The notes: generated from the sequence alone by a model not told the origin. Shown: positions 20,618 to 21,056, counted from the stretch's first letter. The stretch: DNA of 64,000 bases from Thermococcus sp. JdFR-02 (GCA_002009975.1 MTLP01000042.1:128001-192000), one strand, 5' to 3'. Translations and numbers: made by a program.

Positions 20618-20880
20618 TAAGAGGCACCTCCGATATTTTTAAACTTACGTATGTCGTAGGAGTCAAAGATCTCTTTAACTGTTGGTATTGCTACAGTAGC
20701 TATAACTAAGACCCAAGCTGCTGCTGCCCAAACAACCGCAGCATAAGCATAGCCGACTAAGTTCAGAATGGCAGCGTGGTTAACTGCTGCTGCATTATTA
20801 ACAGCCACTACATTATTAGTGCTTATAGTAATGTCTGCGGGAGTGCCAACATCACCACCAACAGGGGGCACGTAGCTCAT
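20617..20880 (-). CDS. RiPP precursor A2, 87 aa, Ala/Val/Asn-rich with Nx5N ladder
   Basis: GGAGGTGA RBS; leader YVPPVGGDVG; N22/N28/N34/N40; TAATG overlap with rSAM gene. Confidence 0.85.
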   Translation of the reverse strand: MSYVPPVGGDVGTPADITISTNNVVAVNNAAAVNHAAILNLVGYAYAAVVWAAAAWVLVIATVAIPTVKEIFDSYDIRKFKNIGGAS

Positions 20881-21056
20881 GCACTTTCACCTCCTGATGT
20901 TTTGTCTTTTAACGGCAAAGACCAAATAATTACAAAAAGTACTGGCATAATCAGTGTGAATGTTGATCCTGGACCACCAACTTCAACTACAACACTGCCA
21001 ACTTCATGTCCAAGATCTTCTCCAATAGGGGGTAGATACGTCTTCAGTGCTATCAC
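20877..21056 (-). CDS. RiPP precursor A1, 59 aa: (M)IALKTYLPPIGEDLGHEVGSVVVEVGGPGSTFTLIMPVLFVIIWSLPLKDKTSGGESA
   Basis: Translated by hand (not in ORF track); leader YLPPIGEDLG matches A2; ATGA overlap with A2; start is GTG 21056 or CTG 21047. Confidence 0.8.
   Translation of the reverse strand: MIALKTYLPPIGEDLGHEVGSVVVEVGGPGSTFTLIMPVLFVIIWSLPLKDKTSGGESA

Follow-up and report, generated by a model that had tools for sequence, protein, structure and literature searches.

Tandem tagged peptides ahead of a radical-SAM cassette in Thermococcus: a conserved small gene with a possible near-cognate start

Introduction

What is encoded by the short open reading frame (ORF) that lies on the minus strand of a 64,000-nucleotide stretch of Thermococcus sp. 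JdFR-02 (GCA_002009975.1 MTLP01000042.1:128001-192000; hereafter the window), directly ahead of a second small ORF and of genes for a radical S-adenosylmethionine (rSAM) enzyme and a PqqD-like protein, and at which codon does its translation begin? Gene callers miss this ORF, here termed A1, or begin it within its own ribosome-binding site. We find that A1 is a conserved gene that shares an N-terminal tag with its neighbour A2, and we judge, with a probability of roughly 0.62, that A1 is the first of two tandem, tagged, precursor-like peptides of a cassette for a ribosomally synthesised peptide that is modified post-translationally (RiPP), which would be bound through its tag by the RiPP recognition element (RRE) of the cassette, modified by the rSAM enzyme and exported. 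The copy of the cluster in the window is called W below, and other loci carry labels beginning with G or L. The parts of the two peptide genes, including the Shine-Dalgarno (SD) sequences, are as follows.

20877..21047, minus strand: A1, small ORF of 56 codons when counted from a CTG, with the frame open as far as a GTG at 21056 (59 aa); from the sequence and homologues
21053..21059, minus strand: SD-like GGGGTGA of A1, 5 nt before CTG 21047, with the in-frame GTG 21056 inside it
21009..21038, minus strand: candidate leader motif of A1, YLPPIGEDLG, its Y, P, P and G unchanged throughout 11 A1 sequences
20617..20880, minus strand: A2, precursor-like ORF of 87 aa with a strong GGAGGTGA SD and an ATG start that shares bases with the A1 stop (ATGA)
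20845..20874, minus strand: candidate leader motif of A2, YVPPVGGDVG, with M1, Y3, P5, P6, G8 and G9 invariant in 12 A2 sequences

A1 and A2 share an N-terminal tag ahead of unrelated cores

The initial annotation of this DNA had matched the N-terminus TYLPPIGEDLG of A1 to SYVPPVGGDVG of A2 and had described the remainder of the two peptides as unrelated. The sequences are as described, and a six-frame translation of the 2.36-Mb genome contains exactly two matches to the strict motif Y[VILM]PP.G[GE][DE][VIL][GD], which are A1 and A2. The bare YxPP motif occurs 378 times in the same translation and is therefore uninformative by itself. When the A1 family (11 sequences) was set against the A2 family (12 sequences) in hhalign, only the N-terminal 17 columns aligned, at a probability of 93.7% and an E-value of 2e-7, which indicates that the cores of A1 and A2 are unrelated, as had been claimed.

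The tag, Y-[VIL]-P-P-x-G-[GE]-[DE]-[VIL]-[GD], starts 2–4 residues after the start in both peptides. Invariant positions in the A1 family are the Tyr, the two Pro and the Gly of this tag, together with V23 and P35, and in the A2 family they are the six positions listed above only. Neither peptide of the window contains Cys, and the rest of each is a fast-changing hydrophobic sequence with much Val, Ile and Ala, which in A1 has one long hydrophobic stretch and a charged tail. A conserved recognition leader followed by a hypervariable core is the usual leader-plus-core pattern of such precursors, and on this usual picture the tag of A1 and A2 would be the recognition leader, standing ahead of a variable core.

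A1 is a real but rare gene of Thermococcaceae

The ORF had been reported as lying below the cutoff of the ORF track, and it is indeed present on the minus strand at 21056..20877, with 59 aa when counted from the GTG. Homologues were sought in related genomes, in a species-level genome collection and in metagenomes, and clusters were treated as assessable where their sequence includes the region upstream of the rSAM gene (n=13). In 11 of these 13 clusters (W, G005a, G015, G084, L043, L044, L122, L123, L124, L125 and L126) the same cassette is preceded by the A1 and A2 pair, and the ratio of nonsynonymous to synonymous substitution rates (dN/dS) of A1 is 0.11–0.41, so that the ORF is conserved, one of the points on which the initial annotation had let its proposal hang. 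Between W and G005a and between W and G084 this ratio is 0.17 and 0.19, between G005a and G084 it is 0.11, and among lineages with CTG or ACG at the start position it is 0.12–0.41, to be compared with 0.13–0.52 for A2 and 0.10–0.17 for the rSAM enzyme.

Three more A1 copies are found in decayed clusters (G005b, G059 and G110, the last on L037). The G059 copy (L036:7998-9000) has stops in A2 and a truncated rSAM gene fused to a fragment of the ATPase gene. A profile search of 5.8 billion proteins recovered just 12 protein clusters of the A1 family, and one A1 database entry is a 56-aa hypothetical protein of Thermococcus litoralis that begins M-G-E-Y-I-P-P. A1 has no family match in Pfam or NCBIfam, A2 likewise matches no leader family, and Rfam gave nothing at E-values up to 1 across window positions 20500-21300.

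A1 is short, lies in AT-rich DNA and lacks a Pfam or NCBIfam family, all of which could be expected of a chance ORF or of non-coding DNA with an accidental likeness to A2. Such an origin is nevertheless hardly credible, given a strict motif found in the whole genome at A1 and A2 only, homologues in more than 10 loci with dN/dS well under 1, and the 12 database protein clusters. A1 is thus a real, conserved, rare and lineage-restricted gene under purifying selection, and the cassette seems, from the sequences recovered, to be limited to Thermococcaceae.

The full cassette also occurs on L043, a 4.4-kb contig labelled as a Thermotogota bacterium metagenome-assembled genome (MAG). This contig carries a Thermococcus-type regulatory block and SD, and its rSAM sequence nests within the Thermococcaceae clade of the rSAM tree; these features make it likely that the contig is archaeal and was mis-binned, and that no transfer to bacteria took place. 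On the plus strand of the window, a 118-aa ORF (20776-21132) runs antisense across A1 and A2; it is broken into 42-aa and 77-aa pieces in L002 and is therefore not conserved.

The cassette encodes an RRE close to lasso B1 proteins and a radical-SAM enzyme without auxiliary cluster

A1, A2 and five further genes run head to tail on the minus strand, and the stop codon of A1 and the ATG of A2 overlap as ATGA at 20880-20877. The genes that follow A2, which end in the two parts of an ATP-binding cassette (ABC) exporter, are listed in order.

19463..20617, minus strand: rSAM enzyme, 384 aa, with a CX3CX2C motif (Pfam Radical_SAM, 2.5e-26)
19062..19466, minus strand: discrete PqqD-like RRE protein, 134 aa (structure model, Foldseek and Pfam PqqD matches of orthologues)
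18580..19065, minus strand: small membrane protein, 161 aa, a conserved member of the cassette (weak match to the bacterial-PH-like bPH_5, E 0.0087, below cut-off)
17787..18608, minus strand: ABC-2 permease (Pfam and locus comparison)
16871..17785, minus strand: ABC ATPase (Pfam/NCBIfam and locus comparison)

A scan with the W proteins as queries covered 12 loci, three of which end early at contig ends. The rSAM gene was found in all 12 of them, and the RRE, permease and ATPase genes in 10 of 12. BLASTP with the W query detected the small membrane protein in 4 of 12 (L121, L123, L124 and L040), with ORFs of similar size in the same slot elsewhere.

The initial annotation had named the 134-aa downstream product as a PqqD protein, and its structure model, with a predicted local distance difference test (pLDDT) score of 89.2, does have the RRE/PqqD fold. 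The top Foldseek matches were TbiB1 in complex with the TbiA leader (5v1v/5v1u; template modelling score by target 0.80), the lasso B1 protein 6jx3 and PqqD (5sxy), followed by the RRE domains of TigE, TbtB, TruD, NisB, MccB and SuiB, so that its nearest solved relatives are lasso B1 proteins, which bind YxxP leaders. Pfam PqqD matches 7 of 12 RRE orthologues, W's own copy not being among them, and the RRE also matches ScmD (E 7e-4). The statement that YxxP is the leader motif of stand-alone lasso RREs is likewise borne out, since the portions available of PMC13381572 and PMC12710340 document YxxP as the recognition sequence of discrete lasso RREs and describe its reuse in a non-lasso family.

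A prediction of the RRE together with the leader peptide had also been proposed; run here as the complex of RRE and A1, it scored 0.33, against 0.00 for the best of 3 controls, which is graded as weak support, low passes of this kind being wrong in most cases where the pairing was not already probable. The pass mark of this score is reached by 116 of 157 solved complexes and by 2 of 215 mismatches, and scores of 0.60 or less comprise only 18 of the 157 solved complexes together with both passing mismatches. Runs agreed in at least 65% of contacts, and the pLDDT of the partner was at least 42.

The rSAM enzyme has five invariant Cys in 10 orthologues (C71, C75, C78, C112 and C114) and none in the C-terminal part, indicating that it lacks a SPASM or twitch auxiliary cluster. 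Among the best 25 of 82 NCBIfam matches, all lie below the curated cut-off, the top ones far below it, and most are confined to the N-terminal rSAM core, with those to SkfB and GeoRSP extending further. Likeness is mostly in the core and is to MftC, ScmE, WgkB, StsB and SkfB (NCBIfam mycofactocin, 1.2e-36), and the best solved relative is SkfB at 2.4e-28. The structure model of this enzyme is poor, with a mean pLDDT of 64.6 and residues 274-318 below 50. Its next-best relatives, at about 30% identity, come from Actinomycetota and Bifidobacterium MAGs; three of the four loci inspected (L045, L049 and L059) are mycofactocin loci, in which an MftA ending ...CGVY is followed by MftB and MftC, and these were rejected as relatives of the present system.

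Proposed working of the cluster and the role of the tag

Taken together, these data suggest a scheme in which the RRE would bind the shared N-terminal tag of A1 and A2, much as lasso B1 proteins bind YxxP leaders, and would hand either peptide to the single rSAM enzyme. This enzyme would then alter the core; a thioether is less likely than an epimerisation or a change of the C–C or C–H type, because the peptides contain no Cys and the enzyme has no auxiliary cluster. The cores may resemble those of radical-SAM epimerase systems, rich in Val, Ala, Ile and Asn. Epimerisation is an attractive guess. The hydrophobic products would leave through the ABC-2 system and would probably be membrane-active, singly or as a pair; A1 may thereby serve as a co-component, as an alternative product or as a helper.

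Several observations weigh against this scheme. A tag that begins 2–4 residues from the N-terminus is unusually short for a leader, and it departs from the lasso consensus [Y/W]xxPx[L/V/I/F/A], as given in the sections available of PMC13381572, at the last position, where Gly is invariant in 11 A1 and 12 A2 sequences. Solved lasso RRE–leader complexes resemble the predicted RRE–A1 pair, and the pass of that prediction may therefore reflect this likeness. A1 is also not strictly required, since its slot in L127 holds a different, Cys-rich 33-aa ORF fused to a 3' remnant of A1, and since G016 (L040) carries A2 without A1, its rSAM gene being split into two frames. Conversely, A1 persists in the decayed G005b locus in the absence of A2 and rSAM genes. 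No leader peptidase is conserved in the cassette, and a C25-like 503-aa protein occurs in the window only, with no match beside the cassette in 12 other loci.

The position of the tag invites another explanation, in which the N-terminal motif is itself the modified site, for example at its invariant Tyr or Pro, or is a signal for export or processing, the hydrophobic rest being a membrane anchor. It would account for the motif being the sole invariant part and lying at the extreme N-terminus with too few residues ahead of it for a usual leader, and the nearest large rSAM family by sequence, MftC, acts on a terminal Tyr. The enzyme of the cassette, however, lacks the SPASM Cys of MftC, the RRE fold is nearest to binders of YxxP leaders, and a conserved tag with a hypervariable rest is what leaders and cores usually look like; we consider a modified or signalling motif improbable and retain the tag as a candidate leader.

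The ORF in the A1 slot of L127 (L127:2505-2606, plus strand, upstream of A2) encodes 33 aa with 7 Cys, mostly spaced CxxxC, has GGTGA, 5 nt and ATG at its start, and is joined out of frame to the A1 remnant. This ORF could be either a recombination scar or a precursor of a third kind, for a maturase of the Cys-free type.

Mosaic divergence of the cassette and an accessory role for A1

The genes of the cassette diverge unevenly. Between W and G005a or G084, identities are 80–87% for A1 and 85% for the ATPase, in contrast to 39–44% for A2, 54–55% for the rSAM enzyme, 36–41% for the RRE and 34–37% for the permease, and it is G016 to which A2, rSAM, RRE and permease of W are closest (53–65%; window 16871-21056 compared with L039, L035 and L040). 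The left breakpoint of this mosaic falls in the leader motif of A2. A switch of identity at the A2 tag suggests that cassettes have been exchanged through recombination inside the conserved leader, which on these alignments may act as the recombination site.

This pattern could also mean that A1 serves the exporter, as a small accessory or immunity protein in the membrane, and is no substrate of the rSAM enzyme, its tag being left over from a duplication of A2. In the comparison with G005a and G084, A1 tracks the ABC ATPase and not the rSAM enzyme or A2; it has a single long hydrophobic stretch and a charged tail; and G005b, from which A2 and the rSAM gene are deleted, still has it together with genes for the membrane protein and the ABC system. 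A relic, however, is hard to square with the residues that are invariant across all A1 subfamilies, which, V23 and P35 apart, are those of the tag. Other subfamilies, moreover, have A1 cores that diverge as much as A2 cores, and the slot in L127 is filled by another peptide-like ORF. The G005b locus (L034:7278-9877) retains A1, an intact membrane protein gene and intact ABC genes, and its gap holds a remnant RRE with an internal deletion; it is therefore a decaying cluster and was rejected as proof of an independent role of A1. We regard an accessory or immunity role as unlikely, and a precursor-like role for A1 remains our preferred interpretation.

A1 probably starts at CTG, with an in-frame GTG as the canonical rival

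The initial annotation had also pointed to CTG 21047 as a possible start of A1. In the window, GGTGA at 21057-21053 is followed by tagca (5 nt) and by CTG at 21047-21045, from which L/M-K-T-Y-L-P-P would be read. Genome-wide, ATG codons are enriched 4–6 nt after GGTGA (294, 387 and 156 occurrences at 4, 5 and 6 nt, against a background of about 60), so that the CTG has modal spacing, and it is in register with the ATG or GTG of 8 homologous copies. The region of the CTG and GTG is identical, with 0 differences each, in contigs from two other sequencing studies, X2 (20964-21129) and X3 (20550-21103), and the CTG is therefore no assembly slip of this record.

In the 14 A1 copies compared, ATG stands at the position set by the SD in 6, GTG in 2, CTG in 3 (W, L124 and L125) and ACG in 3 (L043, L122 and L123). 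A2 starts with ATG in 11 of 12 loci and with GTG in 1. Close sisters in the rSAM tree differ at this codon of A1, with ACG in L123 and CTG in L124, and with CTG in L125 and ACG in L043. In L123 the spacer is one base longer, which brings the TGA of the SD into frame 5 codons before the Tyr; between this stop and the tag there is no ATG, GTG or TTG, leaving ACG as the only option. The distance from the SD to the Tyr codon is 14, 15, 16 or 20 nt across loci, and since these values do not differ by multiples of 3, the stretch has the behaviour of a spacer, unlike that of coding sequence.

Two points tell against the CTG. Neither CTG nor ACG is enriched genome-wide at the SD spacing, and a canonical GTG lies in frame 9 nt upstream of the CTG, the database call for the same sequence (P0004, 59 aa) starting there. 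Initiation at GTG 21056 would give MIALKTYLPP...; GGTGA would then be part of the coding sequence or a weak element inside it, and CTG would simply encode Leu. A standard in-frame codon is what a GTG start has in its favour; L043, L122, L124 and L125 also have an in-frame ATG, GTG or TTG upstream of their near-cognate codon, and NCBI began the relative P0009 at a GTG inside the SD. The GTG nevertheless overlaps the sole SD and has no SD 4–6 nt ahead of it, and L123 has no canonical start at all. A leaderless start at the GTG is in turn unlikely with a conserved promoter block well upstream, and in a relative 94.9% of leaderless mRNAs begin with ATG, as reported in the part available of PMC5316973. 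The non-triplet shifts in SD-to-Tyr spacing likewise disfavour translation from the GTG. We therefore lean towards initiation of A1 at CTG 21047 and hold the GTG to be a rather unlikely start.

A near-cognate CTG start would give less A1 than A2, because A2 has an ATG, a stronger SD and translational coupling through ATGA. Since 6 of 14 copies have CTG or ACG where the SD sets the start, and one locus lacks a canonical option, near-cognate initiation in Archaea becomes directly testable. In print, such initiation in Archaea is only hinted at: in Haloferax, about 30% of putative alternative initiation sites were near-cognate and were put aside by the authors.

A bolder and decidedly speculative proposal, which we consider improbable, is that A1 and A2 each supply one half of a hyperthermophile-specific, membrane-active archaeocin, made by a new rSAM enzyme free of auxiliary clusters, possibly an epimerase of Val/Ile/Ala-rich cores, with a minimal 10-residue leader YxPPxGG(D/E)xG and a dose of A1 deliberately set by SD-directed CUG or ACG initiation. 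If true, it would be the first documented conserved near-cognate initiation in Archaea.

Flanking regulatory block and neighbouring genes

Upstream of A1 lie an intergenic block and a divergent set of genes.

21087..21200, no strand assigned: intergenic block with two TTTATAAAT boxes at 21138-21146 and 21117-21125 (alignment of 8 loci)
21224-22234, plus strand: divergent second ABC ATPase (Pfam/NCBIfam)
22209-23021, plus strand: divergent ABC-2 permease, perm2 (Pfam/NCBIfam)
23023-23307, plus strand: divergent winged helix-turn-helix (wHTH) regulator (Pfam/NCBIfam)

The block, about 110 nt long, is missing from G005a and G084, but an alignment of 8 loci shows it to be much more strongly conserved than the peptide genes. 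It lies between A1 and the divergent ABC genes, about 40–50 nt upstream of the A1 SD, and contains two direct TTTATAAAT-N3-TT(T/G)CAG units. From its sequence and position, it is likely to hold divergent promoters and a binding site for the adjacent wHTH regulator. This promoter assignment uses the TATA geometry given for T. onnurineus in the accessible part of PMC5316973, and such a geometry, with a promoter-like block well upstream of the SD, argues for a leadered A1 mRNA and thereby against a leaderless GTG start.

The divergent ABC ATPase, permease and wHTH set (21224..23307) is a candidate module for immunity and regulation. Among the 12 loci scanned, perm2 was found in 2 (L044, 84%; L123, 91%), and the second ATPase (72%) and the wHTH regulator (41%) in L044 only. 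At least part of the second ABC module thus occurs in three clusters: W and L044 have permease, ATPase and wHTH regulator, and L123 has the permease.

After the cassette, at window 15254-16765 on the minus strand, lies the gene of the 503-aa protein, whose C-terminus is multi-span and which shows an HG...C pattern. Over residues ~30-340, a Peptidase_C25 (gingipain-like) fold is its Atlas lead, and it is a possible leader peptidase.

Comparison with known systems

A search of the literature on Thermococcus and archaeal RiPPs and on radical-SAM/PqqD clusters, supplements aside, found no paper on the present cluster. The closest parallel for the recognition step is offered by lasso systems (TbiB1/TbiA, 5v1v and 5v1u; 6jx3), which share with it a stand-alone PqqD-fold protein and a Y-x-x-P near the N-terminus of the precursor. 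They differ in the residue after YxxPx, which is L, V, I, F or A there and an invariant Gly here, and the partner here is a radical-SAM enzyme in an archaeal host. A lasso pathway was rejected: the 11 proteins of the locus include no Pfam match to a lasso cyclase (Asn-synthetase-like C) or a B2 cysteine protease, and the motif is off-consensus.

Linear polyphosphorylated peptides (LPP) are non-lasso RiPPs that, as set out in the available parts of PMC13381572, also combine a YxxP leader with a discrete RRE, and their clusters encode one to three precursors with conserved N-termini and variable C-termini. The same text gives them a kinase and a SipW-type peptidase where the present cluster has an rSAM enzyme, a longer leader motif, and hosts among Bacillota.

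By sequence, the best relatives of the rSAM core are SPASM/twitch maturases (MftC with MftB, SkfB, PqqE with PqqD, SuiB and CteB), and the logic of a discrete PqqD-like partner matches that of MftB/MftC and PqqD/PqqE. Unlike in that group, the matches here are far below family cut-offs, the enzyme has no C-terminal Cys, and the precursors are Cys-free and lack MftA or PqqA motifs. Mycofactocin was rejected, as the rSAM enzyme scores 126.6 bits against a cut-off of 265 and A1 and A2 do not end ...GVY. A sactipeptide or ranthipeptide system was ruled out, with no Cys thioether donors in A1 and A2 and no C-terminal Cys motif in the rSAM enzyme. Class II double-glycine export through C39 peptidases was set aside as well: there is no Peptidase_C39 match, the exporter is of the ABC-2 type with a separate ATPase, and GG is invariant in A2 and not in A1. 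For proteusin or epimerase systems, whose hallmarks are an NHLP or Nif11-type leader and a PoyD-type epimerase, A1 and A2 gave no leader family match and no epimerase stood among the top NCBIfam matches, YydG matching at 4.4e-5 over the rSAM core only.

Two-peptide bacteriocins and thuricin CD resemble the present cluster in having, beside rSAM and ABC genes, two adjacent small precursors whose leaders are alike and whose hydrophobic cores differ. Thuricin CD, a two-component sactibiotic, reportedly uses two maturases and carries thioethers from Cys to alpha-carbons, whereas here there is one maturase and no Cys. A subtilosin-like sboA/albA/albC cluster of some Thermococcus, the subject of the single Thermococcus RiPP preprint recovered by the search and a different system from the present one, as far as the accessible text of bioRxiv 10.64898/2026.07.27.741052 describes it, is likewise a radical-SAM peptide cluster of Thermococcales with a membrane protein and an ABC ATPase; it differs in a Cys-containing precursor homologous to sactipeptides, an AlbA-type enzyme, a single precursor and, within that text, the lack of a YxPP tag.

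The present cluster thus has the generic features of an RRE-dependent radical-SAM RiPP system, namely a CX3CX2C rSAM enzyme, a PqqD-like RRE and adjacent short precursors with a conserved leader and a variable core. If the precursor reading of A1 and A2 is true, it would represent an undescribed RiPP-like family of hyperthermophilic archaea with a very short leader, a lasso-B1-type RRE, an rSAM enzyme free of auxiliary clusters and two precursors. It would also extend leader recognition of the YxxP type to Archaea and to radical-SAM chemistry, and would point to heat-stable modifying enzymes and peptides. Set beside the known systems, the cluster matches RRE-dependent radical-SAM RiPP clusters as generically defined and lacks what defines the lasso, sactipeptide/SPASM, mycofactocin and double-glycine types.

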